DNA of 64,000 nucleotides from an uncultured Candidatus Saccharibacteria bacterium (lineage in GTDB: Bacteria; Patescibacteriota; Minisyncoccia; Phycocordibacterales; UBA5272): the NCBI GenBank assembly GCA_964455195.1, contig CAYVUY010000001.1, positions 3,642-67,641 on the forward strand. The letters are read 5' to 3'. The notes beneath the pieces are model-generated. The model searched no databases and was not told the origin of the DNA. It worked only from the letters and a program-made list of their open reading frames with translations. This document shows positions 1,627 to 45,431 of the stretch, in pieces. A program made the position numbers and the translations under genes. Every line of letters begins with the position of its first letter. Within the stretch, counting starts at the first letter, position 1.

Positions 1627-2091
1627 ATGTCGAAAAAAAGGAGTGGCAACCAAACGGGTAGTGGTCTTGGCCTAATCGGCCGTATCTCACACCGGGACCT
1701 CCTGGGTCTCGCAGGTGAGTGCATGACTGTCATTGGCCGTCCGGTGAGTTCGCCAGTTGCGAAGCATTCTGCTGTTCTGGATATTTGTATTTCTCCAGAG
1801 GGTATCAACGTCAAGCGCGGCGGAAAGTCGCTCTCGAAAGAAAAGTTGAGCCCTTCTCAGTTTCGGCATATTGTCGACTCTGGAAAACGTCGGGGTATCA
1901 TCGGATTCAGCGAGGTGGTTCATCTCAAGGAATTCGAGGTCGTTGTGAAAACAACGGTAAAGAACCCGACACGCAAAGAAATGGGCATCCTCGATGTGCT
2001 GGATGTCCTCGACGGCAAAATCAAACTGCCAAAAAAGGCAAAGATCGTCGAAGAAGCGCCGACAAAAAACACTGTCGCTGCGGCTGCATAA
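1627..2091 (+). CDS. Hypothetical protein, 154 aa, encoded in a strongly GC-enriched islet. Coding status uncertain; could alternatively be structured RNA.
   Basis: RBS-like GAAGGA 6 nt before the ATG. Ends at a strong tandem-hairpin terminator. Local GC is far above flanks, and long ORFs are open in several frames (typical of GC-rich DNA), so ORF length alone is weak evidence. Confidence 0.35.
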   Translation: MSKKRSGNQTGSGLGLIGRISHRDLLGLAGECMTVIGRPVSSPVAKHSAVLDICISPEGINVKRGGKSLSKEKLSPSQFRHIVDSGKRRGIIGFSEVVHLKEFEVVVKTTVKNPTRKEMGILDVLDVLDGKIKLPKKAKIVEEAPTKNTVAAAA

Positions 2092-2104
2092 GCCAAAGCA
2101 AATT

Positions 2105-2148
2105 TTCGTGGAACTATTCCACGAAAAGGCGTCCCAAGGGACGCCTTT
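2105..2148. terminator. Tandem hairpins forming a bidirectional intrinsic terminator between the GC-rich ORF and uvrA.
   Basis: cgtggaa-cta-ttccacg followed by aaaaggcgtccc-aa-gggacgcctttt. A-tract and T-tract on either side. Confidence 0.7.
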
Positions 2149-2187
2149 TCTACTGCTTGAGTGGACCTTAGTATGTCGTGAAAATAT

Positions 2188-4842
2188 TTATTTATTCTTA
2201 CTATTATCCTTATGTCTCTTTAAAACTTTTTTAAGATACTGACCAGTGTATGAATTAGGATTAGACGCTACTTGTTCTGGAGTACCTGTAGCGATAACCT
2301 TACCACCTCCCACTCCTCCTTCTGGTCCGATATCGATGACGTGGTCCGCATTCTTCACAATATCTAAGTTGTGTTCGATAAGAACCACAGTGTTCCCCTT
2401 ATCTACAAGACGGTTCAGAATTTCAATAAGTTTAACAATATCATCATAGTGAAGTCCGATAGATGGCTCATCGAGAAGATAAATAGTTTTTTCTACATGA
2501 GGACGATACAACTCTGAAGAAATTTTCACACGCTGTGCTTCTCCACCTGATAAGGTAGTTGCAGACTGACCAAGCTCCAAATACGTAAGCCCTACATCAG
2601 AAAGAGTCTTAATACGATCATACACTGCTGGAATATCAATAAAGAATGTAAGAGCCTCCTCTACTGTCATGTGAAGTACATCATTGATGTTCTTACCTTT
2701 GTACTTTACTTCAAGTGTTTCTTTCATGAAGCGCTTACCACCACATACGTCACACTGCACATACACAGTAGGCAGGAAGTGCATTTCAACTGCAATCTCA
2801 CCATTACCTTGGCAAGCTTCGCAGCGACCACCTTTCACATTAAAAGAAAATCTCGATGGCTTCCAACCACGAATACGAGCTTCTTCAGAAGATGCGAAGA
2901 GGTCACGAATATGAGTCCACGCACCAGTATATGTCGCAGGATTAGAACGTGGGGTACGACCGATAGCTGACTGATCAATCATCACTACACGAGAGACATA
3001 CTCCGTACCCGTGAAGTCTTCTACATTAAATAACTTAGCAGTTCTATGACGACGCTCTAAACGTGCGAGTAAGTTACGATGAAGAATCTCATACATAAAA
3101 GAACTCTTCCCTGATCCTGACACTCCAGTTATCACATTGAATCGTCCGAGTGGTACCGAAACATTCATATTCTTAATATTAAAAACGTTTCCATTCTTCA
3201 CGCGTAGTGTTCCTTTGTCATCTTGGCGACGTGCTGGTACTCCGATTTCCTTTTCACCACGAAGATACGCGAGTGTCGCACTTTCTGATTTATTACGTGG
3301 AGCAGAAAGGAGATCCTCGAGATACCCAGAGACAACAACTTCACCACCGTGGACTCCGGCTTTCGGACCAATATCTACGATGAAATCACTTGCGAAAATA
3401 GTATCTTCGTCATGCTCTACGATGATAATGGTATTACCCATATCCCGAAGATGAAGTAATGTCTTAATGAGTCTGTCATTATCACGCTGATGAAGTCCAA
3501 TAGTCGGTTCATCGAGTACGTAGAGTGCTCCTACTAATTTAGAACCAAGTTGTGATGCTAGACGTATACGTTGTGCTTCTCCACCTGAAAGAGTGTCTGC
3601 CTTACGATTAAGTGAGAGATAATCAAGTCCAACATCTAACATGAAAATAAGACGCGATTCAATTTCTTTAATTACTACAGATGCAATTTCTTGGTCTTTC
3701 TTAGAAAGCGGAAGACGCTCGAAATAATTCTGCGCATCACGAATAGAGAGTGCTGTAATATCTACGATATTAATCTTCTCGTGATCATCGAGATACACAG
3801 TAAGAGCTTCCTTACGAAGACGCTTACCTCCACAATCCTCACACTCGTCGAGTCCACCGAAGTATTTAGTTCCGAGTCCATTACATGTAGGACATGCTCC
3901 ATATGGTGAGTTGAAAGAAAAGAGTCGAGGTTCTATTTCTGGGAATGAAAAGCCGCAATTCGCACATGCGAACTTACTACTCATAATGAATTTCTCTCCG
4001 AGAATTTCTATTTCTACCAACCCCTCTGCTTCGTGCATAGCACGTTCTACAGATTCAGAAAGACGCATCATGGCATCCTTTTGTTTTTCTTTATTCTTAT
4101 CAGTTCCTAAATGACGGAAATCATCGATGGCGATAGAATCAACAACGAATGATATTTCGTGTTGTTTAGTTTTTGAAAGTTCGATACGCTCACGAAGTGA
4201 TTTACGCTCCCCGTCGATGACTGCTTCGGTAAATCCTTTACCTAACATATCATAGAGTAGTTGATAGTACTCCCCTTTACGGCCACGTACCACAGGTGAA
4301 AGAATGTGCACTTCTTCGTGAGAAAATTGCACTCCCATTAATTCTTTTTTTACTTTACTGTAATCAATCTTTTTTACTTTATCAGTAATGAAAGCAATAA
4401 TTTCTTCGTTGGAAAGTTTCTGAATTTTGTGACCACATTCTGTACAGTATGGCTTACCTACACGAGCATAGAGCACACGAAGATAGTCATATATTTCTGT
4501 AATAGTAGCAACAGTAGATCGAGGGTTACGCCCAGCTGACTTTTGATCAATAGAAATAGCAGGAGAAAGACCGACGATTTCATCGACGTCTGGTTTTTGC
4601 ATTTGATTAAGGAATTGACGAGCGTATGCAGAAAGAGATTCTACGTAACGACGTTGCCCTTCTGCGAAGATAGTATCGAATGCAAGAGATGACTTCCCTG
4701 AACCGGAAAGACCTGTGAATACAATCATCTTGTGACGAGGCATTTCTACCGTAATATTCTTCAAATTATGCGTTCTAGCGCCACGAACAATGATGTTGGA
4801 TAACGCTAAATCCTTCCCTGGGGTTTTGGAGTCTTTTTTCAT
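2188..4842 (-). CDS. uvrA: Excinuclease ABC subunit A
   Basis: 884 aa. Duplicated ABC ATPase motifs (GLSGSGKSSLAFDT, LSGGEAQRIRLA twice). Zn-finger Cys pairs (CTECGHK, CANCGFSF, CEACQGNG, CDVCGGKR). Confidence 0.95.
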   Translation of the reverse strand: MKKDSKTPGKDLALSNIIVRGARTHNLKNITVEMPRHKMIVFTGLSGSGKSSLAFDTIFAEGQRRYVESLSAYARQFLNQMQKPDVDEIVGLSPAISIDQKSAGRNPRSTVATITEIYDYLRVLYARVGKPYCTECGHKIQKLSNEEIIAFITDKVKKIDYSKVKKELMGVQFSHEEVHILSPVVRGRKGEYYQLLYDMLGKGFTEAVIDGERKSLRERIELSKTKQHEISFVVDSIAIDDFRHLGTDKNKEKQKDAMMRLSESVERAMHEAEGLVEIEILGEKFIMSSKFACANCGFSFPEIEPRLFSFNSPYGACPTCNGLGTKYFGGLDECEDCGGKRLRKEALTVYLDDHEKINIVDITALSIRDAQNYFERLPLSKKDQEIASVVIKEIESRLIFMLDVGLDYLSLNRKADTLSGGEAQRIRLASQLGSKLVGALYVLDEPTIGLHQRDNDRLIKTLLHLRDMGNTIIIVEHDEDTIFASDFIVDIGPKAGVHGGEVVVSGYLEDLLSAPRNKSESATLAYLRGEKEIGVPARRQDDKGTLRVKNGNVFNIKNMNVSVPLGRFNVITGVSGSGKSSFMYEILHRNLLARLERRHRTAKLFNVEDFTGTEYVSRVVMIDQSAIGRTPRSNPATYTGAWTHIRDLFASSEEARIRGWKPSRFSFNVKGGRCEACQGNGEIAVEMHFLPTVYVQCDVCGGKRFMKETLEVKYKGKNINDVLHMTVEEALTFFIDIPAVYDRIKTLSDVGLTYLELGQSATTLSGGEAQRVKISSELYRPHVEKTIYLLDEPSIGLHYDDIVKLIEILNRLVDKGNTVVLIEHNLDIVKNADHVIDIGPEGGVGGGKVIATGTPEQVASNPNSYTGQYLKKVLKRHKDNSKNK

Positions 4843-4875
4843 ATCAATTCGTTATTATACCACAAAAAATAGGGT

Positions 4876-5040: not shown

Positions 5041-5050
5041 CCTAATAAAA

Positions 5051-5088: not shown

Positions 5089-5105
5089 AGAATAAAAACA
5101 TTATA

Positions 5106-5648
5106 TTAATCCACCTTAAGTGTATTGAAGATATTCTTCACTGCGTCAGCATCTGCCTTTTTTGATTCCACCATCATGAGCCATTCACCACCTTTCAAAG
5201 TAGCAATGTTCCATTCCATGGTATTAGATTCAACATGATACCAATCATAACTTCCCATATGTACTGTACTTGTAGAAGTTAGCACTGGAACCTTAGGAGC
5301 AATAATAGAATCAAAATATTGTTCTGGTGTCCATGCACGAATTCCTTCGTAACTAAAATACGCTAGAGCTTTCTGAGAATCATCAGCTCCTTTAACAACT
5401 ACAGTTTGAGAGTCATCTCCTTTTGATGAAGTCATTCCCTCTGGGACATAAAACTTATAAGAAAGAAAATTCTGTCCCTCTGCCATCTGTGCTGTAGCCC
5501 CACTTACTTCTACCATTCCAGAAACATCCTGCTTATTTCCCATCATCTCACTGCCACTATCTGAGTGAGAAAAAAGGTATGCTCCAACCGCCACAAGAAT
5601 TACTGCTAATATCACCACCCACGTAACTACTGAATTTTTTGATTGCAT
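5106..5648 (-). CDS. Hypothetical membrane-anchored secreted protein
   Basis: Start taken at MQSKNSVVTWVVILAVILVAVGAYLF (single N-terminal TM). The longer track ORF (to 6074) would overlap the uvrB 3' end and a plus-strand gene. Confidence 0.5.
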   Translation of the reverse strand: MQSKNSVVTWVVILAVILVAVGAYLFSHSDSGSEMMGNKQDVSGMVEVSGATAQMAEGQNFLSYKFYVPEGMTSSKGDDSQTVVVKGADDSQKALAYFSYEGIRAWTPEQYFDSIIAPKVPVLTSTSTVHMGSYDWYHVESNTMEWNIATLKGGEWLMMVESKKADADAVKNIFNTLKVD

Positions 5649-5771
5649 AATAGGGATAGTATATTCCTCTAAAATAGGAATGTAAAATACCCCTAAAATT
5701 TGACAAAAGCCTAAAAAATCAGTAGATTTACAATTGAAGTTTATTTCTATCAGCACCCCAAGGAGAGCTAC

Positions 5772-6029
5772 ATGAGCGCAAGCGATGTGCCTGTCATTTG
5801 TACCCACTGCAAAGGTGAAACACAGTTCATGAAAGAAGTGTCCGGGAATGATTCTATCCAGTACTACTTCTTTTGCCCTTGCAAAAAAACCCCACGCTAC
5901 GGCTCTTTTATGAAGGCAGAAGCAATGTGGGAAACTCATTGGTACAAAATAAAACCAGAAGATATGCCCCCATTCGAAGAAATGGAACCAGCGAGGAGAG
6001 CTGGTTACACTGGGATGGTAGGGAACTGA
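5772..6029 (+). CDS. Small zinc-ribbon-like protein, 85 aa
   Basis: AAGGAG RBS 7 nt upstream of the ATG. CTHC ... CPC cysteine pairs. Followed by a GC hairpin terminator. Confidence 0.5.
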   Translation: MSASDVPVICTHCKGETQFMKEVSGNDSIQYYFFCPCKKTPRYGSFMKAEAMWETHWYKIKPEDMPPFEEMEPARRAGYTGMVGN

Positions 6030-6030
6030 A

Positions 6031-6057
6031 ATGGGGGCGTCCAAAAGACGCCCCCAT
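6031..6057. terminator. Bidirectional intrinsic terminator serving uvrB and the small zinc-ribbon gene
   Basis: atgggggcgtc-caaaa-gacgcccccat. Confidence 0.7.
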
Positions 6058-6063
6058 AACTTT

Positions 6064-8160
6064 TTACACATCATCCTCTCCTATTTCTACATTAGTCTCT
6101 ACATTCTTTAACCCCTCTTCTTCATTTTTAAGAGCTCTTCCTTTCAAAACTTTTATTTCATCACGAAGTATTGCAGCAGTTTCGAAATCAAGTGCCTTCA
6201 CTGCTTCTTTCATTTGTTTTTCTTTCAACTTAATTAATTTAGTTGGATTTTTTGCAAATAACTTTTGATCCACTTCAAGTTCTGTCGACACTGCTTTATC
6301 GTGATCACTTGCTATACCTTCTGTAATATCTTGTATGCTCTTTGAAATAGTAATCGGAGTGATGTTGTGTTCTTTGTTATATGCTTCTTGTAATGCGCGT
6401 CGTCGATTGGTCTCACCTATTGCACGCTCAAGTGAACCTGTCATCTGATCTGCATATAAAATAACTCTTCCCTTAGCATTACGTGCTGCACGACCGATAG
6501 TTTGAATAAGCGATGTTTCACTTCGAAGGAATCCTTCTTTATCAGCATCAAGTATCCCAATAAGTGTTACTTCTGGTAGGTCTAATCCTTCACGGAGCAA
6601 GTTAACTCCCACAAGACAATCGAATTCTCCTTTTCGGAATCGAGTAAGAATTTGAATACGTTCAATGGTTTTAATATCACTATGTAAATACTCTGCCTTA
6701 ATACCTTCCCCACGAAGATACTCGGAAAGAGACTCTGCCATTTTCTTGGTGAGTGTTGTTGCTAGTATTCTTCCACCTGCTTTTGTATCTTTAATTGTTT
6801 CTTGTATAAAATCATATACTTGACCCTTATATGCACCCTTTTCTAACACTGGTCGAACGAAGAGTTGCGGGTCGAGCAATCCTGTCGGACGAATAATCTG
6901 CTCCACCACTTGTTCCCCTTCTGTGCGCTCATACTCACCTGGAGTAGCAGAAACATACACAACCTGACCAATACGCTCTTCGAATTCTTCATAACGTAGT
7001 GGGCGGTTATCTTTCGCTGATGGAAGACGGAATCCGTATTCGACGAGTGTCTGCTTGCGAGACTGATCTCCTGCATACATACCGTGTAATTGTGGAAGTG
7101 TTACGTGTGACTCATCTATCACAGTTAAGAAATCCTGTGTTCCGTCTGGAAGTTTAGGAAAATATTCAATAAGTGTATCCGGTGCAACCCCTGGTGCTTT
7201 ACCTGATAAGTGTCTTGAGTAGTTTTCGATTCCTTGGCAGAATCCCATTTCTCTAATCATCGCTATGTCATAACGAGTACGACGCTTAAGGCGCTCTACT
7301 TCTAGAATCTTACCTTCCTTTTCTAATTCTGCGAGACGTTCTTTAAGTTCCTTCTCTATAGTTTTCACAGCTCGTTCACGTGTTGGAATATCAGAAATGA
7401 AGTGCTTTGCTGGGAAAATAAAATAATCATCTACTTCTTTTAGAATGCGCATAGATACTGGGTCAGTCACAATCAGTGAAGAAATACTGTTACCTGCTAT
7501 TTCTATTTGAAGCATTACTGTTTCTGATATAGGCATAATATCTATTCTGTTACCTATCGCACGGAATGTTCCTGGTGAAAGATCAGCGGTAGTTCTTTCA
7601 TATTGAATATTTACGAAACGTTGCATGAGCTCTGCCTTTGATGCAGGGTCTCCCACTGAGAGTTTAATATTCTCTCTTTCGTAATCAGCTGGTGACCCGA
7701 GACCATAAATACATGATACAGATGCGACGATAATAACATCACGACGTGTGAGAAGCGCTTGAGTAGAAGCGTGACGAAGACGATCAATTTCTTCATTAAT
7801 CTGAGCGTCTTTCTCTATATAGGTATCCGTCACTGGCATGTATGCCTCTGGCTGATAGTAGTCGTAATACGATACGAAGTAATGCACCGCCGCATCAGGA
7901 AAGAATGAACGGAATTCTTGTGCGAGTTGTGCAGCGAGAGTTTTGTTGTGAGCTATAACAAGAGTTGGCTTTTGAATTTCATTAATAACACTAGCCATAG
8001 TGAATGTCTTCCCTGTTCCGGTAGCACCAAGTAATGTCTGCTTACGCATACCTTTATTAAGCCCTGCCACGAGAGCTTTAATTGCTTTGGGTTGATCTCC
8101 TGCTGGAGTAAATCCTTTTAGAACGAATGTTCCCTCACCTCTTTTGTTCTTGCTTGACAT
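6064..8160 (-). CDS. uvrB: Excinuclease ABC subunit B
   Basis: 698 aa. Helicase motifs GATGTGKTFTMA, DESH. C-terminal UVR domain ALDFETAAILRDEI. Confidence 0.95.
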   Translation of the reverse strand: MSSKNKRGEGTFVLKGFTPAGDQPKAIKALVAGLNKGMRKQTLLGATGTGKTFTMASVINEIQKPTLVIAHNKTLAAQLAQEFRSFFPDAAVHYFVSYYDYYQPEAYMPVTDTYIEKDAQINEEIDRLRHASTQALLTRRDVIIVASVSCIYGLGSPADYERENIKLSVGDPASKAELMQRFVNIQYERTTADLSPGTFRAIGNRIDIMPISETVMLQIEIAGNSISSLIVTDPVSMRILKEVDDYFIFPAKHFISDIPTRERAVKTIEKELKERLAELEKEGKILEVERLKRRTRYDIAMIREMGFCQGIENYSRHLSGKAPGVAPDTLIEYFPKLPDGTQDFLTVIDESHVTLPQLHGMYAGDQSRKQTLVEYGFRLPSAKDNRPLRYEEFEERIGQVVYVSATPGEYERTEGEQVVEQIIRPTGLLDPQLFVRPVLEKGAYKGQVYDFIQETIKDTKAGGRILATTLTKKMAESLSEYLRGEGIKAEYLHSDIKTIERIQILTRFRKGEFDCLVGVNLLREGLDLPEVTLIGILDADKEGFLRSETSLIQTIGRAARNAKGRVILYADQMTGSLERAIGETNRRRALQEAYNKEHNITPITISKSIQDITEGIASDHDKAVSTELEVDQKLFAKNPTKLIKLKEKQMKEAVKALDFETAAILRDEIKVLKGRALKNEEEGLKNVETNVEIGEDDV

Positions 8161-8238
8161 AGTCGATTATTGATTATAGCATAAAATCGAACATCAACCA
8201 CTTTAGTCAACAACGATACACAAGAAAAGGAGCCTTAC

Positions 8239-8613
8239 ATGTCTTCCCCTGAAACGTTGCAAGACCTCGCAGTCACGCATCGCCTCGTGTCAACACCGGA
8301 TGATTTGAAAATCATCGCGACCCTCATCAATGAGCGCGTCGATAACGGTGTCTACGCCTACGAGAAAGGACGAGAGAAGCTGATAGATGCTCATGAGTAC
8401 ATCACGAGCCCTGTCTACTTCGAAGCTCGCCACGGACAAGTTCGTCTCTACGGACGCGTTCGGCAAAGCGGGAAAGTGTGGGGGATCAGCATCGCTGGAA
8501 CCCCAACAGCCCCAGTCATCAACGTGTTCGCACGTGGACATGAAGGAAACCCTGTGCAGTCGGTTGATTTTGCAATTTACATACCGAAATGGTACGAAAA
8601 AAGTCACGGGTGA
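8239..8613 (+). CDS. Hypothetical protein, first gene of a GC-rich three-gene operon
   Basis: AAGGAG RBS. GC content clearly above flanking genes. Confidence 0.5.
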   Translation: MSSPETLQDLAVTHRLVSTPDDLKIIATLINERVDNGVYAYEKGREKLIDAHEYITSPVYFEARHGQVRLYGRVRQSGKVWGISIAGTPTAPVINVFARGHEGNPVQSVDFAIYIPKWYEKSHG

Positions 8614-8657
8614 AGTGCACAGTACCTTAACACAACCAACACTTACTTGGAGGGTCT

Positions 8658-8993
8658 ATGGATACACAAGAACATAGCGACGACCCTCGAAGGGTCTGTC
8701 TGCCGAGCAAGGGTGCACTCCTCCTTCGCGCATTAAGCGATGGGGATACGCGCATCTATATCAAACTGCAAGACCTTGGAAAGGATTCAACTGAACTGTT
8801 AGAGTTTTACAAAGTTGGTTTGCCCCCATTTGATTTATCACGTAGGGGCGGAGCACTGTTACTGACATGTTCAGAGCCGGGGAATCCTAACAAACGCAAA
8901 AACCTGCAACTAATCAATGACACCATTGTTGATGAGTCTGGACGCACCCCGAAGACGTATTCGGTCATCATGCCGAGGTGGCTTCATGACTAA
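8658..8993 (+). CDS. Hypothetical protein, GC-rich operon gene 2
   Basis: Same strand and composition as its neighbours. Its stop overlaps the next start (ATGACTAA). Confidence 0.5.
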   Translation: MDTQEHSDDPRRVCLPSKGALLLRALSDGDTRIYIKLQDLGKDSTELLEFYKVGLPPFDLSRRGGALLLTCSEPGNPNKRKNLQLINDTIVDESGRTPKTYSVIMPRWLHD

Positions 8994-9423
8994 CATCGAC
9001 CCGTATGATGTCGGTCCGTTCGGTGAGCCGGACTTTGACTACATTGATTTTTTGGAACAGGTACACGACTTCGATGAGTACTCATTTTTCTATGAGGACC
9101 TGGATTACGAAGAAGTACTCAAGCTCTGTGGTATTGTTGAATACGACCTTCATCCTTTCTATGAGGACACATCACTTTACCAAAGAACGATTCTTTCTGA
9201 TCAGGAATTCCTAACGACCGATAACGTATGGCGTATAAGGACCGCCAAAGAAAAGCATGTAGGAAGAAGTGAACGTCAAAAGGCAACGGAGATTCTGCAA
9301 TCCCTCCGTGAAGAAAACCCAGCGACACAAAGTACTGACGAGTGGCTGCACTCTTTTGAAGTTGGAACACGCTGTTACGAAATATTGCAAGCCCCATTGG
9401 GGAAACTGAAACCACGCCTATGA
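8986..9423 (+). CDS. Hypothetical strongly acidic protein (aromatic and D/E-rich N-terminal half), GC-rich operon gene 3
   Basis: ATGA overlap coupling with the upstream gene. N-terminus MTNIDPYDVGPFGEPDFDYIDFLEQVHDFDEYSFFYEDLDYEE. Confidence 0.5.
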   Translation: MTNIDPYDVGPFGEPDFDYIDFLEQVHDFDEYSFFYEDLDYEEVLKLCGIVEYDLHPFYEDTSLYQRTILSDQEFLTTDNVWRIRTAKEKHVGRSERQKATEILQSLREENPATQSTDEWLHSFEVGTRCYEILQAPLGKLKPRL

Positions 9424-9447: not shown

Positions 9448-10701
9448 TTATTTTTTATAATATCTTTCGATAAAATTATTTTTGAATTTTAAAAAGTTAC
9501 CTTCGATGAGAGCTTGTCGTGCATTCTCCACTAATGTAGTGATAAATTTAAGATTATGAAGTGATGCGATAGTGGCTCCTGTCATTTCATCAGAACGGAA
9601 TAAATGTGCGAGATAGCTCTTCGTATACTGATGTGTGTACCATGTAGGTTCATCTGATACTGGCGTCATATCTTCTTTGTACTTTGCATTGAATATATTG
9701 ATACGACCATCAAGAGTATAGAGTCCACCATTACGCGCAATACGTGTCGGAGCAACACAGTCGAAGGTATCTATTCCATTTTCTATTCCAAGTAAAATAT
9801 CTAACGGTTCTCCAATGCCAAGTAGGTGACGAGGTTTACCTTCTGGTAGAATTTCATTCACCCATCTCACAGCTGTACCCATATCTTCTTTTGTAAAACT
9901 TCCCCCTATTCCATATCCATCGAAATCCATAGCACCTAGAATTCTAGCTGATTCCTTGCGTAAATCTTCATATGCTCCACCTTGCACAACTCCAAAAAGT
10001 GCTTGCATTTCTCCAGTAGCTTGTGATACTCCGAGGCGCTTATGTTCTCTTAAACTGCGCTCTGCCCAGCTATGGGTTCTGTCTATTGCTTTTAATTGAT
10101 ACTCCTTCGGAGCTAGTGGTGAGGTACATTCATCAAATGCAAAAAACATATCCGCGCCCAAGTTGTGCTGTATCTGCATACTGCGCTCTGGTGTGAAGCG
10201 ATGCTCACTCCCATCAATAATAGATTTAAACGTCACACCTTCATCATCTATTACCGCTAACTTCTCATGTGCATTCGTTGTTTCCTTTTTCTCACGCTTG
10301 GAAATATCTTGTGTTTCTAATTCTGATATTTCTTTACTTGTTGCAATCTTACTTACACCATGCCCCATAGCTTGTCCTAAAGAAAATACTTGGAAGCCTC
10401 CTGAATCAGTAAATGTTGGACCATTCCATCCCATCATCTTGGCGAATCCTCCGTGCTTTGCTACAAGCTCATCTCCTGGTTCAAGATAAAGATGATATGT
10501 ATTTGCAAGCACTGCTTCTGCACCTACATAATCACGTACTTGTTCTGGGGTAAGTGACTTCACTGTGGCTTTCGTACCTACTGTAATAAATGCTGGAGTT
10601 TTAATATCACCATGTGGAGTATGGATAACGCCCGCACGCGCCAAAGGCGCTTCAGAAGACTTTTTTACTATTTCAAAATTAAATATTTTATTCATTTTCA
10701 A
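9448..10701 (-). CDS. tgt: Queuine tRNA-ribosyltransferase (tRNA-guanine transglycosylase), with an internal insertion
   Basis: LARAGVIHTPHGDIKTPAFITVGTKA ... FTDSGGFQVFSL ... C-terminal Zn-site-like CVAPTRIARNG. Confidence 0.9.
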   Translation of the reverse strand: MKMNKIFNFEIVKKSSEAPLARAGVIHTPHGDIKTPAFITVGTKATVKSLTPEQVRDYVGAEAVLANTYHLYLEPGDELVAKHGGFAKMMGWNGPTFTDSGGFQVFSLGQAMGHGVSKIATSKEISELETQDISKREKKETTNAHEKLAVIDDEGVTFKSIIDGSEHRFTPERSMQIQHNLGADMFFAFDECTSPLAPKEYQLKAIDRTHSWAERSLREHKRLGVSQATGEMQALFGVVQGGAYEDLRKESARILGAMDFDGYGIGGSFTKEDMGTAVRWVNEILPEGKPRHLLGIGEPLDILLGIENGIDTFDCVAPTRIARNGGLYTLDGRINIFNAKYKEDMTPVSDEPTWYTHQYTKSYLAHLFRSDEMTGATIASLHNLKFITTLVENARQALIEGNFLKFKNNFIERYYKK

Positions 10702-11188
10702 TATTTTTAAACATCCTATAAGAATCGGTAATGAACCCTAAAGATTCATAAAAACAAATAGCCTTACTGTTTCTTGCTTTTACATTTAATCTTACAATAG
10801 TTATTCCTTTGCTTTTAGCCCACCCATAGAAATCTGCAAGCAGACCCGTGCCGATTTTACTCCCTCTAAATTCTTCAACAACAAAAATCCCATCACAAAA
10901 TGCTATTTTTTCGACACCAAAATAATTACTAATATCTTCTGTATAGCCTAAAATATATCCGATTGGATTTTCATTAGAAAATATAATTTCGCAAAATACA
11001 TCGTGATTGAAAGCCTCTTTTATTTCTTTTTTAAAATCGACCTCGGGTGTTTGTTTAGGCTTTAGCTCCGAATAGTTAAAGTTATTTTTAATATATTCAT
11101 CATTAAAGTTCTGATACAAAAAAATTAATGCGTCTCTATGCAACTCTAAATTTTCTTTAGATACAATAATCTTTTTAAACTCAATCAT
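10688..11188 (-). CDS. GNAT family N-acetyltransferase
   Basis: Motif A: IFVVEEFRGSKIGTGLL. Confidence 0.8.
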   Translation of the reverse strand: MIEFKKIIVSKENLELHRDALIFLYQNFNDEYIKNNFNYSELKPKQTPEVDFKKEIKEAFNHDVFCEIIFSNENPIGYILGYTEDISNYFGVEKIAFCDGIFVVEEFRGSKIGTGLLADFYGWAKSKGITIVRLNVKARNSKAICFYESLGFITDSYRMFKNIENE

Positions 11189-11301
11189 ATCGGCATTCTA
11201 CCATGAATTGTAAAGTAAGAAGAAACAGTGTAGGCTACATCGTAAGTGCTCATTTTATTTTCGCGAGCAACCCATCCACCTTATTCATTGAAGGATTTTC
11301 C

Positions 11302-23502: not shown

Positions 23503-23504
23503 TG

Positions 23505-35419: not shown

Positions 35420-35448
35420 TTGACAATGTCAATAAAAAGTAGTATTAT
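35420..35448 (+). promoter_or_regulatory. Near-consensus sigma70-type promoter (TTGACA-17-TATTAT) driving the GC-rich small ORF
   Basis: TTGACA at 35420-35425, 17-nt spacer, TATTAT at 35443-35448. Confidence 0.5.
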
Positions 35449-35506: not shown

Positions 35507-35794
35507 ATGGCACTACGCCGATTGAAAGGGGTAAACATCAGTCATCAAGGAGCAGCGGAAGCGAACATGCACTCGAGCAAACCAGTCTACGCGCTGGCTC
35601 CGGGCCAAATCACGATTGTTTCGGTGCTTGGCGATGAAATCGCCGAAGCGATGGTCCAGGAGCATCAATCAAACATCGAAAGGCGGATTGCTGCCGGAGA
35701 CGAAAATGTCGAACGGCTCATGACTATCGCCTGCGAAGTCATCGAAACTCACGCAAGTCATGAAGACCGTCAGGACTTCGACGACAGGCGCTAA
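35507..35794 (+). CDS. Small hypothetical protein, 95 aa. GC-rich, with codon usage unlike neighbouring genes.
   Basis: AAGGAG RBS 8 nt upstream of the ATG. Consensus promoter upstream. GC-rich terminator downstream. Acidic C-terminus. Confidence 0.55.
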   Translation: MALRRLKGVNISHQGAAEANMHSSKPVYALAPGQITIVSVLGDEIAEAMVQEHQSNIERRIAAGDENVERLMTIACEVIETHASHEDRQDFDDRR

Positions 35795-35810: not shown

Positions 35811-35835
35811 AGGGGCCAGCCAACAGGCTGGCCCC
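35811..35835. terminator. Intrinsic terminator
   Basis: aggggccagcc-aac-aggctggcccct followed by a T-rich tract. Confidence 0.65.
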
Positions 35836-36100
35836 TATTCATTTATATACATTCAATTGAGTTGCCAAAATCGCCAAAATACTATAGTATGAGACTACTC
35901 TAATTATTAACAAGAGAACGTTCTGGCGTAACCCTCCGTTACCGATTGCATTGGCAAAGTAATGGAAAAACCAGACCGAAGCGTACATCCGCATTCGTGC
36001 GGAAATTTTTCTTTTGACAAGCGAGGATAACGCACAAATAAAATTTGTATGTTATCCGAGTGCAGTCAAAAAACAAAAAAGTTTAAGAAACTTAATTTTT

Positions 36101-37180
36101 ATGGAAGAAACAAAACAAGTAGTAGATACACCAGTTCTTAAGAACGAGGATATCGTAGAAGGTTCTGTCGTAGCTATCGAGAAAGCTGCATTATATGTAG
36201 ATCTCGGTAACTTCGGTACAGGTATTATTTATGGTATCGAGTTCATGAATGCTCGTGACGTTATCAAGCGTATCAACATTGGAGATTCTATCTCTGCTAA
36301 AGTTGTAATGCGTGAAAATGAGAACGGCTATGTAGAACTTTCACTTAAGGAAGCTCGCCAAGCTCTCATTTGGTCTGATGCAGAAGTTGCTATTCGTGAG
36401 AAGCGTATCGTTGATATCGTCGTTAAAGACGCTAACAAGGGTGGTCTTATTCTCGATTGGCAAGGCATCATGGGATTCCTCCCTGCATCACAGCTTAAGG
36501 AAGAAAATTATCCTCGCATCGAAGATGGAGATAAGGACAAGATTATGCGTGAATTAAAGAAGCTTATCGGTAAGCGTCTTTCAGTAATGATGATTAACGC
36601 TATTCCAAAAGAAGGTAAGCTTATCTTCTCAGAAAAGGATAGTAAGGGTGGAGCAACTGGAGGTTCTACAAACAAGGAAAAGGGTGAAATCACCTCTGGT
36701 TCTTATGTTGTAGGTGATGAAGTAGACGGTACTGTAACAGGTGTTGTTGAATTCGGAATCTTCGTACGTCTCGAAGAAGGTGTGGAAGGTCTTGTACACA
36801 AGAGTGAAATTGATTGGGGTCTTGTAGAAGATACTAAGGCATACGCTCGTGTAGGAGATAAGGTTCGCGCTAAGATTATCGAGATTAAGGATGGTAAGAT
36901 TTCTCTTTCTATGAAAGCTCTTAAGCAAAACCCATGGAAAGAAGCTGCCGCTAAATACAAGAAAGGTGATGCTGTCACCGGTGTTGTTATCAAGTTCAAC
37001 AAGCATGGTGCACTCGTTTCTGTAGAAGAAGGAGTGGCTGGTCTTGTGCATGTATCTGATTTCGGAGATGAAGAGAAGCTTCGCGCTACTCTTTCACTTG
37101 GAAAGAGCTACAACTTCAGTATCACACTCTTTGATGCTGACGAAGAAAGAATGACTCTTTCTTTTGCAGACAAGAAATAA
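36101..37180 (+). CDS. rpsA: 30S ribosomal protein S1 (four S1 domains, short form)
   Basis: Repeated S1-domain pattern (G.VV.G.V......GA.V.L..GV.G..H.S). Start chosen at MEETKQV. Long structured leader upstream. Confidence 0.9.
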   Translation: MEETKQVVDTPVLKNEDIVEGSVVAIEKAALYVDLGNFGTGIIYGIEFMNARDVIKRINIGDSISAKVVMRENENGYVELSLKEARQALIWSDAEVAIREKRIVDIVVKDANKGGLILDWQGIMGFLPASQLKEENYPRIEDGDKDKIMRELKKLIGKRLSVMMINAIPKEGKLIFSEKDSKGGATGGSTNKEKGEITSGSYVVGDEVDGTVTGVVEFGIFVRLEEGVEGLVHKSEIDWGLVEDTKAYARVGDKVRAKIIEIKDGKISLSMKALKQNPWKEAAAKYKKGDAVTGVVIKFNKHGALVSVEEGVAGLVHVSDFGDEEKLRATLSLGKSYNFSITLFDADEERMTLSFADKK

Positions 37181-39698: not shown

Positions 39699-41006
39699 AT
39701 GAGTCAACCAGATAAAAATACAAAGAAAGAAGTTCCAACATCACTTAAAGGAATGTTCGATCTTATAGGTGATGAATATTACCGCTACCAAGGACTTTTC
39801 GAAAAGGCTCAGGAAGTTGCTGTGTACTACGGATTCAAACCTATTGAAACTCCAATTCTTGAAAAGGAAGATGTGTTCATTTCCGCTATTGGTGAAGGAA
39901 CTGATGTTGTCGATAAAGAAATGTATGCATTTAGCTCCAAAGGACGTGATCGTTTAGCGCTTCGCCCAGAATATACTGCATCTGTCATGCGTGCATATCT
40001 AGAACATGGCATGCAAACACTTCCTCAGCCAGTACTTCTTTACTCATATGGACAACTTTTCCGCCACGAAAACCCACAGCGAGGGCGCCTTCGCCAATTA
40101 CGACAATTCAATATTGAAATTCTAGGAACAACCAAGAGTATCGCTGATGCTCTTGTGATTAGAACACTGATGACTATTTTGGAAGAGTTTGGTTTCGAAG
40201 ATTTAATGATTGATATTAATAGCATGGGAGATAAAGAAACTCGACCAGCATATATAAAAGAACTAACCAACTACTATAAGAAACACATTGGTTCAATGTG
40301 TAAAAACTGCCAAGAAAGAATTAAAGTTAATCCTCTACGCCTCCTTGATTGTAAAGAAGTAGAGTGTCAACCATTTAAAGAAGCAGCTCCAACATCGCTT
40401 TCATTCTTATCATCTGATGCACGTCATCACTTCAAAGAAGTACTTCAATACCTAGAAGAAATGGGTATTCCGTATCGTATGAATCACACACTTGTACGCG
40501 GACTTTCATATTATTCTCGTACTGTGTTTGAAGTAATTAAAATTGATAAAGATGAGAATGGTAATGAAAAAGAAATAACCATTACTGGTGGTGGTCGCTA
40601 TGATTATCTCGCGAAAGATATGGGTTCTAAGAAAGATGTCCCTGCTGTAGGTACAGCGCTTGGTATTGATCGTATTCTCATGTTCCCTGAATGTAAGAAA
40701 TTGATGCCACGCATAATGAAAACACCTAAAGTGTATTTCATACAACTTGGGTTCGAGGCCAAACTAAAGAGTCTCTGTGTTATCGAAGTGCTTCGCAAAG
40801 CAAAGATTCCAGTTCACCAATCAATTTCAAAAGACTCACTCTCGATACAGCTAGCACTTGCTGAAAAAATGGAGGTACCATACTGCATCATCTTCGGACA
40901 AAAAGAAGCGATGGATAATACAGTAATAGTACGCGACATGAAAACTCACTCTCAAGACACTGTAAAAATCGACGCACTCTCTGATTACATCAAGCATTTG
41001 AAATAA
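39699..41006 (+). CDS. hisS: Histidine--tRNA ligase
   Basis: Class II motif 2: FRHENPQRGRLRQFRQFNIEILG. Motif 3: GGGRYD. Confidence 0.95.
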   Translation: MSQPDKNTKKEVPTSLKGMFDLIGDEYYRYQGLFEKAQEVAVYYGFKPIETPILEKEDVFISAIGEGTDVVDKEMYAFSSKGRDRLALRPEYTASVMRAYLEHGMQTLPQPVLLYSYGQLFRHENPQRGRLRQLRQFNIEILGTTKSIADALVIRTLMTILEEFGFEDLMIDINSMGDKETRPAYIKELTNYYKKHIGSMCKNCQERIKVNPLRLLDCKEVECQPFKEAAPTSLSFLSSDARHHFKEVLQYLEEMGIPYRMNHTLVRGLSYYSRTVFEVIKIDKDENGNEKEITITGGGRYDYLAKDMGSKKDVPAVGTALGIDRILMFPECKKLMPRIMKTPKVYFIQLGFEAKLKSLCVIEVLRKAKIPVHQSISKDSLSIQLALAEKMEVPYCIIFGQKEAMDNTVIVRDMKTHSQDTVKIDALSDYIKHLK

Positions 41007-41010
41007 AATT

Positions 41011-41042
41011 AAAAAACCGATACCTCAAGGTATCGGTTTTTT
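41011..41042. terminator. Bidirectional intrinsic terminator after hisS
   Basis: aaaaaaccgatacc-tcaa-ggtatcggtttttt. Confidence 0.6.
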
Positions 41043-41164
41043 AATTTTATTTCACTTCGATTTTCCACATCCAGTGGAAAGTCGAAGTTTAGTCACTAAA
41101 TGACACGACGGTCACTTTAGGTGTATAATCCAATTGAACAAATAACCAATCGGGGGTAGTTGCT

Positions 41165-41626
41165 ATGAGCACTGTGCACACTGTGAAGAGCTTTACCCAA
41201 TCTTTGGTTGGGTCGACATGCCTTGTCTACTGGCTTCAGCACTACGGCATCGGCGGGAGGCGATTCAAACATAACATCGGAATTGGAGTTATCACAAAAA
41301 TAGATACGAAGACTGTTTCGTTTGCTTTTCTTCTCACTCGAACGCGGGACTTTAATGACGGAACATTTTCGGCAATGACCCAAACGCGTGGGAATGATGC
41401 TGAGCGTATCATGATTTTGAAAAAGCATCCGACGCGCAAGCAATACGGCCAGAACGTCTCCTACCGGTACATTATAGATTGCCACCTGATTACGGAAGAC
41501 GAGGAGGCTCTCAAGGCTACCCTACTTGCGAACTTGAGCTGGGTAGGCAGAAAAGAAATTGCAGAGATTGTCAGGCTTTTACCGAAACTTCACGAAGATT
41601 GTGCGAAGTACGCAAAAAGTCTGTAA
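41165..41626 (+). CDS. Hypothetical protein, 153 aa, in a GC-enriched islet. An antisense ORF is also open.
   Basis: Upstream TGACAC-17-TATAAT promoter-like element (41104-41129) and a G-rich RBS. Strong terminator downstream. Confidence 0.45.
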   Translation: MSTVHTVKSFTQSLVGSTCLVYWLQHYGIGGRRFKHNIGIGVITKIDTKTVSFAFLLTRTRDFNDGTFSAMTQTRGNDAERIMILKKHPTRKQYGQNVSYRYIIDCHLITEDEEALKATLLANLSWVGRKEIAEIVRLLPKLHEDCAKYAKSL

Positions 41627-41643: not shown

Positions 41644-41678
41644 CGCGGCACTCAATAACCCTGAGTGCCGCGTTTTTT
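41644..41678. terminator. Intrinsic terminator
   Basis: cgcggcactc-aataaccct-gagtgccgcg-tttttt. Confidence 0.65.
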
Positions 41679-41986: not shown

Positions 41987-41988
41987 TT

Positions 41989-43549: not shown

Positions 43550-43649
43550 TCATTCCTAAAAACCCTTACTTTGCAAGCTTTTTTAATAGTTGGCAAAGAT
43601 TTTTTTATTTTGTTATAGTAAGTACATTATTAACTTCAAAGAACCCCAC

Positions 43650-44909: not shown

Positions 44910-44925
44910 TTAAAAACTAGAAAAG

Positions 44926-44950
44926 CAAAATCCCGCCTAAGCGGGATTTT
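44926..44950. terminator. Bidirectional intrinsic terminator
   Basis: caaaatcccgc-ctaa-gcgggatttt. Confidence 0.6.
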
Positions 44951-44968
44951 ATGTACCAATAAGTTTGA

Positions 44969-45265
44969 CTACTGTCCAAAATATCCGGTACGAACACTGC
45001 GGGACCCACTGACACTGTATGAATCAACCGCTGATCCAAATGCCTGTGGAGCCTCATCGTACTTCATTGAAACCTGACCGCGTAGCAGCATTCTTCGCCT
45101 TGCAAAATCGGTCTCAGGTGGCGCATTCCTAGGAACTGTAGGAAGATGAGTCGCGCAAATCAGCGCGACTAGTGCCTGTACCGCATCTCTTAACTGCTTT
45201 TGCCCTGCGTCGTCATTTTCATTTGCATCCGGTTCTACATGACTGCCATTCGTCACTGTGTTCAT
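44969..45265 (-). CDS. Hypothetical protein (about 98 aa) in a GC-enriched islet
   Basis: GAGGGG RBS 7 nt upstream of MNTVTNG. GC well above flanking genes. Confidence 0.4.
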   Translation of the reverse strand: MNTVTNGSHVEPDANENDDAGQKQLRDAVQALVALICATHLPTVPRNAPPETDFARRRMLLRGQVSMKYDEAPQAFGSAVDSYSVSGSRSVRTGYFGQ

Positions 45266-45431
45266 GTGTCGACCCCTCAACTAGGTTAATTGATTGTTAC
45301 TTCCATAAGCATTTTAACAATTTAAATGGTTTAAGACAAAACAAGAATCTTAGACGTAACTCTTTATAAAATCTCACTGTCATCCGATTTTATTATTTTC
45401 ATGTAAATGAGCTATGGTATACTGACATCCT

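Follow-up and report, generated by a model that had tools for sequence, protein, structure and literature searches.

GC3-rich small-gene islets between housekeeping genes of a CPR bacterium: apparently old, fast-evolving residents of recurrent accessory slots

Phage 'morons', a concept of the Hendrix laboratory, are autonomous promoter-gene-terminator units that lie among conserved phage genes and are often of deviant composition. Other well-known classes of small or variable loci include bacterial orphan genes, which are usually AT-richer than their host, and replacement-type flexible genomic islands or hypervariable loci, e.g. O-antigen or pherotype loci, which are flanked by conserved genes. 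In a 64,000-nt stretch of a Paceibacteria/Parcubacteria (CPR) genome (hereafter the window) we characterized seven islets, comprising nine ORFs, together with a tenth GC3-rich gene. Like morons, the islets are self-contained (promoter-like site, Shine-Dalgarno motif, small ORF and hairpin terminator), lie between undisturbed conserved genes, deviate in base composition, and vary in presence among relatives. Unlike morons, they are chromosomal, with uvrABC, tgt, hisS, rpsU and ftsZ as neighbors and no prophage genes nearby, and most of them are slot-stable across deep divergence. The features are as follows:

1627..2091, plus strand: islet A, 154-aa basic (pI 10) soluble orphan protein; GC3.54
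5772..6029, plus strand: islet B, 85-aa zinc-ribbon-like protein (CxxC...CxC); GC3.49
8239..9423, plus strand: islet C, three-gene operon convergent with tgt; promoter-like site at 8154-8182
8239-8613, plus strand: C1, 124 aa; GC3.56; Shine-Dalgarno motif present
8658-8993, plus strand: C2, 111 aa; GC3.49; Shine-Dalgarno motif present
8986-9423, plus strand: C3, 145 aa, acidic (pI 4.4); GC3.45; overlaps the C2 stop
11203-12081, plus strand: HD_4 domain gene (RelA/SpoT-type HD hydrolase); matches PF13328 and TIGR00691
33488..33676, plus strand: islet D, 62-aa basic orphan, probably helical; GC3.44; Shine-Dalgarno motif GGAGG
35507..35794, plus strand: islet E, 95-aa acidic orphan protein; GC3.57; the highest-GC segment of the window
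41165..41626, plus strand: islet F, 153-aa protein between hisS and rpsU; GC3.54
44969..45265, minus strand: islet G, 98-aa protein with the conserved C-terminal motif GSAVDS(Y/F)SVSGSRSVRTGY; GC3.41

Third codon positions set these ORFs apart from the rest of the window, which has an overall GC of 39.2%: all nine islet ORFs (GC3 0.41-0.57) exceed the maximum of the 52 other genes (mean 0.288, sd 0.035, max 0.384). On raw GC, z-scores against windows of the same length are 3.5 for A, 1.6 for B, 3.8 for C, 1.8 for D, 3.6 for E, 2.3 for F and 2.8 for G, and ranking the 64 kb by GC in 300-nt windows places the top six within E, C1, A, G, F and C2; B and D, lying outside these strongest windows, are therefore weak by this measure. 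The overall GC of G (.50) is mostly due to its Gly/Ala/Arg/Pro-rich amino acid content (GC1.62, GC2.48, GC3.41). Third-position bases are near-uniform in the islets (A.24, C.26, G.25, T.25), as against A.33, C.14, G.15 and T.39 in housekeeping genes; the effective codon numbers of the two sets are 57 and 46, respectively. Within their synonymous families (Arg, Arg and Leu) CGG, AGG and CTG reach shares of.16,.17 and.26 in the islets versus.00,.01 and.02 in housekeeping genes. Intergenic DNA has 33% GC and the islet 5' regions 30-35%; the enrichment ends at the ORF boundaries, and no GC3 gradient into the flanking genes was seen around the islets. They form a separate, sharp-edged compositional class almost devoid of codon bias, whose foreignness in composition and codon usage is real, in a host genome whose neutral drift is toward AT.

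The nine ORFs are organized as seven autonomous promoter-Shine-Dalgarno-ORF-terminator units and are genuine genes for small, soluble, cytoplasmic proteins. A Shine-Dalgarno motif lies 5-9 nt 5' of the ATG in 9/9 of them, and most units have both a promoter-like site and a hairpin terminator, the latter being found 3' of A, B, E, F and G. The best two sigma-70-like matches (11/12) in the 33.3-45.5 kb region are directly upstream of E and F. Searches against Pfam, PHROG, PADLOC and PDB sequences returned no match for any islet ORF. The initial annotation had described seven GC-enriched segments with high-GC codons that encode small proteins without recognizable domains and have their own expression signals, and this description stands. 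The start of C3 is corrected to 8986, and the GC3-rich genes are joined by the HD_4 gene, which the initial annotation had overlooked. Among the neighboring genes that it named, rpsA is now placed at 36014-37180, and 33785-35377 encodes an MBL-fold protein with a peptidoglycan-binding domain.

Relatives were sought by scanning 1.84 billion representative proteins exhaustively with HMMER; the genomic comparison covers a handful of short metagenomic contigs and, for the organism itself, the 64 kb window. Islet A, divergent from uvrC and convergent with uvrA, has a promoter-like site (1541-1570), the Shine-Dalgarno motif GAAGGA and two hairpins (2103-2150) that it shares with the 3' end of uvrA; its AlphaFold model is poor (pLDDT 38). 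A homolog with 31% identity (P0013; GC3.48-.51) occupies the same uvrC-uvrA slot in the strain pair L085/L086, in which the flanks of the slot are 89-96% identical to the window, and nucleotide identity falls from ~.9 to ~.4 exactly at the edges of the cassette. Between these two strains the islet has 1 mismatch/486 nt versus 10/600 nt, with an indel at the junction, which argues against hypermutation in the islet. Islet B is preceded by a promoter-like site (5700-5728) and shares with uvrB the hairpin at 6031-6057, a predicted bidirectional terminator for both genes. It lies antisense within an over-extended mechanical ORF (5106-6074), the real gene of which is probably 5106-5600. An ortholog of B with 59-60% identity (P0009) and host-like GC3 (~.32) adjoins uvrB in L083. 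A more distant relative (P0017, 37% identity) occurs in three phage contigs (L099-L101) beside NinG, HNH, DnaB, methylase, holin and endolysin genes, and is the sole phage link of the islets. For C1 and C2 the scan recovered no homolog, while members of the C3 family were found in the uvrB-tgt slot of L097 (34% identity, GC.55) and of L098 (P0016, GC3.32).

Islet D is the weakest member of the class; its putative protein is predicted from the Shine-Dalgarno motif and the ORF, no homolog of it was found in the same scan, and the corresponding slot in L089, L091 and L094 is short (~150-175 nt) and without a D homolog. Islet E is framed by the promoter TTGACA-17-TATTAT (35420-35448) and a terminator (35811-35836). 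Weak homologs (31-34% identity) occupy the same slot, between rpsA and the MBL-fold gene, in L090 and L087, and the cassette is ~40% identical in nucleotides to that of L090 between flanks that are 75-95% identical. The slot is filled by different GC-rich DNA in L088, L089, L091 and L092; L094 has nothing in it. Islet F, with a promoter at 41100-41129 and a terminator at 41644-41672, has orthologs whose GC3 ranges from.31 to.75 at almost constant GC1 and GC2, that of L094 being host-like; pairwise identities in the family are roughly congruent with those of the flanks. It is missing from L089, the closest relative by flanks, which implies a loss, and comparison of occupied with empty F slots shows a plain insertion between terminator and rpsU promoter. 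Islet G has a promoter-like site at 45339-45311, shares a bidirectional terminator (44951-44926) with ftsZ, and has an ortholog (P0011, 42% identity) between trxB and ftsZ in L084; in L094, from which it is absent, the ftsZ-trxB gap is 29 nt.

The HD_4 gene, between a GNAT gene and a malic enzyme gene, shares the compositional signature (GC3.485, likewise above the 0.384 maximum; effective number of codons ~64). Its ortholog in L097 (79-84% identity) has a GC3 of.56-.58 versus.33-.35 in the flanks, so that the gene is GC3-rich in both lineages. In overall nucleotide identity it does not differ from its flanks, so that a late transfer did not take place. It is less diverged at four-fold sites, where the LogDet distance is 1.00 (CI 0.65-1.76) for this gene versus 1.82 (CI 1.37-2.56) for the flanks.

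Taken across the window, A, B, C3, F, G and, weakly, E have distant homologs (25-60% identity) in the same syntenic slot of relatives with flanking proteins 63-96% identical to those of the window; orthology at 25-35% identity rests on synteny together with E-values of 1e-10 to 1e-28. All islet-family matches for which the context was looked up lie in the same slot of related Paceibacteria, with the exception of the B relative in phage contigs. The flanks have reached a dS of at least 1.5, or saturation, between the window and these relatives. Islet proteins have a dN of 0.26-0.9, as against 0.04-0.24 for their neighbors (omega ~0.4 where estimable), and, the HD protein excepted, evolve ~3-20 times faster. 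The same-slot homologs and the near-saturated synonymous sites thus identify these genes as long-standing, fast-evolving orphans. With a probability of roughly one half, we favor the view that most of the islets are old slot residents kept in a GC-rich state. They resemble other bacterial orphan genes in being short, fast-evolving, taxonomically restricted, patchy, and deviant in GC3 and codon usage. Unlike the usual orphan they are GC-richer than the host, their deviation is retained by positional orthologs despite near-saturated dS, at values that vary from.31 to.75, and neither a donor nor a tRNA anchor, repeats or mobility genes came to light. For C1, C2 and D, which have no homologs at all, recent acquisition or de novo origin is possible.

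The first alternative, that each islet is a separate and fairly recent acquisition from a GC-richer donor (a host bacterium or phage) that has not yet ameliorated, we consider unlikely. It would account for the atypical GC3 and codon usage and the sharp borders, for the singletons C1, C2 and D, for the B family in phage contigs, and for variably filled slots: F and D are absent from L089, and D, E and G from L094, whereas L089 has other GC-rich inserts in other slots, and the insert in slot E of L088 and L089 has 67% GC. The numbers for A, taken alone, fit an import with GC3 ~.73 shortly before the split of the window and L085, still ameliorating. However, near-saturated dS separates the positional orthologs of six families. 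The spread of GC3 among F orthologs, from fully host-like to.75, is not explained by a single high-GC donor; back-extrapolation for F and the HD gene requires an ancestral GC3 of.85 to >1; and the latter retains more G/C at four-fold sites than neutral decay predicts. The initial annotation had proposed repeated small-scale acquisition, for which foreign composition, autonomy, variable slots and the phage relative of B speak, but most islets are not recent imports: A, B, C3, F, G and the HD gene are kept across dS of at least 1.5, conservation of the kind that it had itself named as pointing to ancient rather than acquired genes. The high-GC host that it suggested as donor finds no counterpart, as the scan of 1.84 billion representatives revealed no homolog in a recognizable high-GC donor. 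For the phage source the 37% relative of B is favorable, but no islet homolog was present in 50,697 phage records, 72,556 plasmids or IMG/VR. A single old import that simply ameliorates slowly does not fit either. Conserved flanks, diverged or different content at the same locus and sharp identity breakpoints further recall replacement-type islands, but the islets encode single small cytoplasmic proteins and not surface-structure clusters, and, with flanks saturated at synonymous sites, weak constraint alone can explain the divergence of the inserts.

Distinctly less probable is a codon-class regulon, in which selection for GC-ending and rare codons (CGG, AGG and CTG among them) ties accessory or stress translation to rare-tRNA supply or starvation. 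The TTA/bldA system of high-GC Streptomyces provides a parallel. The enrichment of the three codons, the almost purely synonymous nature of the shift, and the presence in the class of a SpoT-like HD gene with seemingly constrained synonymous sites are in line with such a regulon. Nevertheless, all G- and C-ending codons rise together, with effective numbers of 57-64, which indicates loss of bias and not preference for particular codons, and the shift is missing from the orthologs in L094, L098 and L083. The tRNA content of the window is tRNA-Trp only.

A site-specific mechanism of an undescribed kind, inserting autonomous small-gene cassettes between housekeeping genes, is hardly credible. In its favor, the cassettes are discrete and sharp-edged and lie where conserved genes end, a given slot varies in content from genome to genome, and in L089 different slots are filled; like integron gene cassettes, the islets are small, mostly single-ORF and variable in content between relatives. 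Unlike these they are dispersed and not arrayed, have their own promoters and lack attC, with no intI or attI found in the window. The islet ends display no common terminal repeats, target duplications or attC-like sites, and Pfam recovers no integrase, transposase, reverse transcriptase or recombinase among window ORFs scanned as genes, as had been noted from the outset for most of these elements; this speaks against the mobile-cassette mechanism then offered as an alternative. Occupied F slots differ from vacant ones by plain insertion, the families are mutually unrelated, and each is faithful to one slot, fitting descent and not mobility. Least credible of all are GC-rich structured RNAs, inert GC-rich DNA with chance ORFs or assembly chimeras: although structured RNAs in AT-rich genomes classically stand out by their GC-rich DNA, A and C1 are each open in several frames, and C1, C2 and D lack homologs, the similarity is at the protein level in a single frame (E-values 1e-10 to 1e-33, at ~40% nucleotide identity), all nine ORFs have Shine-Dalgarno motifs, the C2-C3 overlap is consistent with translational coupling, Rfam yields no known RNA family even at permissive thresholds, and the same islets recur in independent assemblies (L081/L082, L085/L086, L088/L089, L095/L096).

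The nine ORFs and the HD gene occupy recurrent accessory slots between housekeeping genes of one Paceibacteria/Parcubacteria clade, and whole units are gained or lost between lineages; on the favored view A, B, C3, F, G, the HD gene and, weakly, E have been in place since before near-saturating divergence. They may have entered the clade as foreign accessory genes, probably from a phage or mobile pool. A gene- and lineage-specific GC-favoring process may hold them off compositional equilibrium. It could be recombination-associated, through biased gene conversion or through allele replacement restricted to the polymorphic cassette, or it could be selection on synonymous sites. Host-like orthologs (F in L094, the C3-like gene in L098 and B in L083) speak against it in so far as they show that these genes are not inherently GC-rich. 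As in GC-biased gene conversion (Lassalle et al. 2015, PMC4450053), GC3 is raised, mainly synonymously, on an AT-biased background, at loci where recombination between divergent alleles is plausible; unlike it, the boundary is sharp, and a rise of +0.15 to +0.45 in GC3 is large for the process. The flanks also lack the GC3 gradient that conversion tracts might give. The islets probably fulfil strain-specific accessory roles: F is a predicted Sm/SH3-like barrel adjacent to rpsU and ybeY, B is a putative zinc ribbon that phages share, and C3 is strongly acidic.

At the codon level the islets separate sharply from the rest of the window, and the GC enrichment against an AT-rich background that the initial annotation had pointed out is borne out in all nine of their ORFs. 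The units concerned, with a tenth GC3-rich gene and two neighbours whose annotation has been corrected, are as follows.

1627-2091: islet A, GC-rich small ORF
5772-6029: islet B, GC-rich small ORF
8239-9423: islet C, three ORFs (C1, C2 and C3)
11203-12081, plus strand: HD gene, tenth GC3-rich gene, between a GNAT gene and a malic enzyme gene
33488-33676: islet D, GC-rich small ORF
33785-35377: MBL-fold protein with a peptidoglycan-binding domain (corrected annotation)
35507-35794, plus strand: islet E, GC-rich small ORF
36014-37180: rpsA (corrected annotation)
41165-41626, plus strand: islet F, GC-rich small ORF between hisS and rpsU
44969-45265, minus strand: islet G, GC-rich small ORF

By raw GC, for which the window as a whole stands at 39.2%, the z-scores of the islets against windows of the same length are 3.5 (A), 1.6 (B), 3.8 (C), 1.8 (D), 3.6 (E), 2.3 (F) and 2.8 (G), so that the claimed outlier status holds for A, C, E, F and G and is marginal for B and D. 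Ranked by GC, the top six 300-nt stretches in the 64 kb lie in E, C1, A, G, F and C2. GC at third codon positions (GC3) is 0.41-0.57 in all nine islet ORFs, above the maximum of 0.384 among the 52 non-islet genes (0.288 ± 0.035); the HD gene also exceeds this maximum (0.485) and belongs to the same unbiased-codon class. The frequencies of A, C, G and T at third positions are.24,.26,.25 and.25 in the islets and.33,.14,.15 and.39 in housekeeping genes. Likewise, the usage of CGG, AGG and CTG is.16,.17 and.26 in the islets versus.00,.01 and.02 in housekeeping genes, and the effective number of codons is 57 and 46, respectively. As intergenic DNA has a GC of 33% and the islets' own 5' regions 30-35%, the enrichment is limited to the ORFs, and no GC3 gradient is seen in the flanking genes (.286 at up to 150 nt from an islet versus.271 beyond 5 kb). 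Islet G is an exception in that its GC derives mainly from a Gly/Ala/Arg/Pro-rich amino-acid content.

Two other kinds of composition were seen in the window. Two large proteins (49958-52348 and 60257-62659), which are probably surface proteins, combine high GC2 with very low GC3. The GNAT acetyltransferase gene adjoining the HD gene (10688-11188, minus strand) has a low GC of.287 and a GC3 of.246; it is missing from the otherwise collinear locus L097 of a relative, and thus represents an AT-rich accessory insertion next to a GC-rich gene.

Every islet ORF has a Shine-Dalgarno motif 5-9 nt 5' of its ATG, and C3, which starts at 8986, overlaps the end of C2 in a manner that suggests translational coupling. 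Promoter-like sites were found for all seven islets, with 11 of 12 consensus matches for E and F, 10 of 12 for B and C, and 9 of 12 for A, D and G; the two best sigma-70-like sites in the 33.3-45.5 kb region lie directly 5' of E and F. These putative signals agree with the earlier claim that the islets carry their own expression signals, and E and F with its two near-consensus promoters. The terminators claimed for each islet are reported for five, as a G+C hairpin followed by a T run occurs 3' of A, B, E, F and G; those of A, B and G also serve as terminators for the convergent uvrA, uvrB and ftsZ genes. With the HD gene counted as an eighth unit, six (A, B, C, D, G and the HD gene itself) run antiparallel to the genes on either side. 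The neighbours include uvrC, uvrA, uvrB, tgt, rpsA, hisS, rpsU, ftsZ and trxB; the earlier annotation of rpsA needs correction. This anatomy of a single ORF or short operon with its own promoter-like site and, in five units, a terminator is like that of phage morons, although the islets adjoin chromosomal housekeeping genes rather than phage or prophage genes. We conclude that the islets are real, autonomous, moron-like small-protein genes that form a distinct codon-usage class.

Some features of the surrounding DNA deserve mention in their own right. The mechanically called ORF at 5106-6074 (minus strand, 322 aa) is over-extended, as its N-terminal half runs antisense to the conserved gene of islet B. 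The protein actually made probably corresponds to the last ~164 aa (5106-5600); this shorter product has a hydrophobic segment at its N terminus and, after uvrB in the related locus L001, a counterpart of 29% identity. The non-coding stretch 5' of rpsA (35872-36013), with a small hairpin at 35988-36003, is 73-87% identical to the related locus L090, the adjoining E cassette being ~40% identical; this stretch, which gave no Rfam match, may be an rpsA leader or autoregulatory element. The hisS terminator (40999-41054) is formed by a 27-nt perfect palindrome, and a second, 15-nt inverted repeat (41054-41088) lies immediately 3' of it, just 5' of the F promoter.

No islet ORF matched anything in Pfam, PHROGs, PADLOC, NCBIfam or PDB sequences, in line with the earlier statement that they lack recognisable domains. 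The proteins are soluble, without transmembrane segments or signal peptides, and have pI values of 4.4-10.5. The B protein is a four-cysteine zinc ribbon, the G protein has a strongly conserved 20-residue C-terminal motif, and C3 and its 275-aa relative consist of strongly acidic repeats, a composition that might speculatively be called DNA-mimic-like. An RNA- or ribosome-associated role for F is a reasonable guess from its fixed position beside rpsU and ybeY. The predicted structure of the A protein is unusable (pLDDT 38), and the domain of the HD gene is HD_4 (RelA/SpoT-type HD hydrolase). Among the other genes of the window are two small ones resembling T4SS pilins (PF18895; 23775-24146 and 25901-26155, both minus strand), a type IV pilus cluster with two N-methyl pilins and a PilC/T2SSF protein (58161-63997, minus strand), and a TfoX_N competence-regulator-like gene (48215-48553).

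The best UvrB matches among GTDB species representatives are from Paceibacterota/Parcubacteria MAGs (62-75% identity), a group in which the gene order tgt-uvrB-uvrA-uvrC is kept; the proteins of the window itself each stand alone at 90% identity and come from a single 73-kb NCBI contig. Among relatives the gaps at exactly the islet slots range in length between 8 nt and 2.6 kb; those of the more distant relatives hold unrelated genes that are not GC-rich. An exhaustive HMMER scan of the nine islet proteins, concatenated, against 1.84 billion representative proteins recovered one relative of A, two of B, one (weak) of C3, three of F and one of G; it found no homolog of C1, C2 or D, and for E only E itself. 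The relatives of A, C3, F and G and the closer one of B, once their genomic positions were looked up, each proved to occupy the same syntenic slot. Thus the A homolog P0013 (31% identity) lies in the uvrC-uvrA slot of the loci L085 and L086, the flanking UvrC and UvrA of which are 89% and 96% identical to those of the window; F homologs lie in the hisS-rpsU slot of L081/L082, L094 and L095/L096; the B homolog P0009 (59%) adjoins uvrB in L083; the G homolog (42%) is in the trxB-ftsZ slot of L084; and C3-like genes are in the uvrB-tgt slot of L097 and L098. Weak E homologs were found in L087 and L090, where they fill the slot flanked by rpsA and the MBL gene. The HD gene differs from the small islet genes in its good conservation, its ortholog in L097, located between tgt and the malic enzyme gene, being 79-84% identical. 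Nucleotide identity is 75-95% in the flanks and drops to ~40% exactly at the cassette edges.

Gain and loss are nonetheless real. L089, a 50-kb JGI contig, lacks D and F (its hisS and rpsU are 126 nt apart); its slot E contains other GC-rich DNA, as do three further slots that have no insert in the window. In L094, D, E and G are missing. When F slots with and without the gene are compared, the difference is a simple insertion located 3' of the hisS terminator and 5' of the conserved rpsU promoter, and the target is not duplicated. As L089 is the relative closest in the flanks, its lack of F implies loss, and within the F family the pairwise identities roughly follow the pattern seen for hisS, rpsU and ybeY.

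These relatives, the flanking proteins of which are 63-96% identical to those of the window, are not recent, since their flanks have reached or come close to synonymous saturation: NG86 dS is 1.5-1.6 for the window versus L085 and saturated in the hisS comparisons, and identity at 4-fold sites is.37-.55, with ~.30 expected at saturation. The dN of the islets is 0.26-0.9 versus 0.04-0.24 for their neighbours, with omega ~0.4 where estimable. Over so long a time, weakly constrained orthologs would be expected to diverge to 25-60% protein identity without any need for hypermutation. Local hypermutation is also rejected by the strain pair L085/L086, for which the counts of differing positions are 1 of 486 nt in the A homolog and 10 of 600 nt in the adjacent uvrA. 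The same pair, derived from different sequencing runs, shows a ~40-nt indel exactly at the islet/uvrA junction (at about 2402 in L085), and this indel together with the uneven SNP density may mark a recombination breakpoint.

As same-slot homologs persist across near-saturated synonymous divergence, A, B, C3, F, G and the HD gene are conserved across relatives, which contradicts the view of them as recent arrivals; E is so conserved weakly, and C1, C2 and D not at all. Judged from sequence comparison, most islets are long-standing, fast-evolving positional orthologs. Of the earlier proposal of repeated recent acquisition from a high-GC host, the foreignness and the gain and loss stand, whereas the recency does not for most units, and no donor was found. 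No high-GC donor lineage was found among the 1.84 billion representatives, phages, plasmids and IMG/VR: neither 50,697 phage records nor 72,556 plasmid records yielded a tblastn match, and IMG/VR scans with the F family, C1, C3, the A family, G, B and the B family were likewise negative. Only P0017 provides a link to phages: this member of the B zinc-ribbon family (37% identity) occurs in at least 24 contigs whose gene content is that of phages (NinG, HNH, DnaB, DNA methylase, holin and M15 peptidase). High-GC DNA does enter slots in this clade, as seen in slot E of the independent assemblies L088 and L089, where a segment of 67% GC (9578-9899 in L089) lies within a locus of 44.6% GC. Its frame in L089 begins with an ATG and a Shine-Dalgarno motif and needs a +1 shift after 10 codons to continue into a signal peptide (…AVALVGSAAQA) followed by Pro/Ala-rich repeats. 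This ORF, for which no homolog was found, may represent a pseudogene or a case of programmed frameshifting, or else an assembly error common to the two assemblies.

Searches for mobility functions came back as empty as the first reading of the sequence, which had seen no integrase, transposase, attC-like site or shared terminal repeat. The Pfam scan of the window ORFs taken as genes yielded no integrase, transposase, recombinase or reverse transcriptase, and no phage structural or lysis genes are present in the window. No shared end repeats, terminal motifs or target duplications were found among the islets, and their all-against-all BLASTP comparison gave no cross-family similarity. The inverted repeats at their ends are only ordinary G+C hairpins with T runs, mutually unrelated in sequence, and the window's only tRNA (Trp, 23504-23575) is far from every islet. 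Of the hallmarks of recently acquired genomic islands, atypical base composition and codon usage is present, and those of mobility (flanking tRNA, direct repeats, integrase or transposase) are absent. For the suggested mobile gene-cassette mechanism there is likewise no indication of any mobilising machinery, no repeats or duplications and, in the scanned ORFs, no recombinases having been found. Integron gene cassettes are rejected for want of attC-type repeats and of intI or another recombinase in the scanned ORFs; moreover, integron cassettes are promoterless and arrayed, whereas the islets are dispersed over 44 kb, each with a promoter-like site. A diversity-generating retroelement target is not supported: no reverse transcriptase was found among the Pfam-scanned window ORFs, the sense strands are A-rich rather than A-depleted (the AT skew is positive over A, C and E), and L085/L086 show no hypervariation. 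Structured non-coding RNA is very unlikely, given conservation at the protein level and Rfam searches at gathering and permissive thresholds, which in the window and 12 related loci returned only tRNA-Trp and spurious terminator hairpins.

There remains the cause of the GC3 excess, for which the orthologs offer a comparison.

Table. GC3 of islet genes and the HD gene in the window and at loci of relatives
F: window.54; L094.31 (host-like); L081.59-.63; L095.75
C3: window.45; L097.51-.58; L098.32
B: window.49; L083.32-.33
A: window.54; L085.48-.51
HD gene: window.49; L097.56-.58

For F, GC1 (.47-.50) and GC2 (.39-.46) vary little across the four loci; with GC3 so wide-ranging and the first two positions near-constant, the shift is synonymous, lineage-specific and common to unrelated genes of one genome. 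Passive amelioration of a single ancient import fits A numerically, with a back-extrapolated GC3 of ~.73 at the split. It fits F and the HD gene poorly, as.85 to more than 1 would be needed at the split and, in the case of F, as one ortholog has fully equilibrated and another stands at.75. Neutral drift to 50% GC is unlikely, and weak selection drifting to an unbiased equilibrium is rejected by the intergenic GC and by the fast-evolving non-islet genes (g120, lepB, kinase and GNAT), the GC3 of which is.24-.30. Late transfer of the HD gene between lineages is dismissed, as its overall nucleotide identity to L097 equals that of its flanks. At 4-fold sites the LogDet distance of this gene is 1.00 (CI 0.65-1.76) versus 1.82 (CI 1.37-2.56) for the flanks, with many retained C-C pairs; the statistics are modest, and they suggest constraint or a GC-favouring bias at its synonymous sites. 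As to GC-biased gene conversion, GC3 is elevated in the islets, it does not decay into the flanking genes, and the junction indel and uneven SNP density of L085/L086 hint at recombination; the closest relatives available are saturated at synonymous sites. Candidate explanations for the GC3 excess are a recombination-linked bias or replacement restricted to the cassette, selection acting at synonymous positions, or the slow amelioration of imports that were very rich in GC.

The most far-reaching reading, to which we give odds of about one in five, is that in one Paceibacteria subclade unrelated autonomous accessory genes are actively held at ~50-75% GC3 with unbiased codons against an AT-biased genome, beyond neutral-site saturation, the families relaxing to host composition in sister lineages that have lost most islets. 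Such active maintenance would point to a lineage-specific, cassette-restricted GC-favouring process. Strong biased gene conversion or allele replacement might be at work in polymorphic accessory slots alone; alternatively, there might be a codon-based translational regulon mirroring TTA/bldA. To our knowledge neither process has been described for CPR bacteria, and no described equivalent in them was found in the literature searched.

CPR bacteria (Patescibacteria) have small genomes in which uncharacterised small proteins make up a large share of the genes. The nearest concepts for the islets are phage morons, compositionally atypical orphan genes and bacterial GC-biased gene conversion (PMC4450053). 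Our results indicate that orphan genes can constitute a codon-usage class that is distinct and recognisable and occupies recurrent slots between core genes, and that this GC-rich class has long persisted, its evolution being about ten times faster than that of the adjoining genes. If the GC3 excess merely reflects slow amelioration of old imports, these would be ordinary compositionally atypical accessory genes. If it is actively maintained, the islets would provide a natural system for separating biased gene conversion, synonymous selection and amelioration in bacteria, and GC3 would be a cheap marker for accessory genes, possibly with roles in host or phage interaction, in uncultivated episymbionts.
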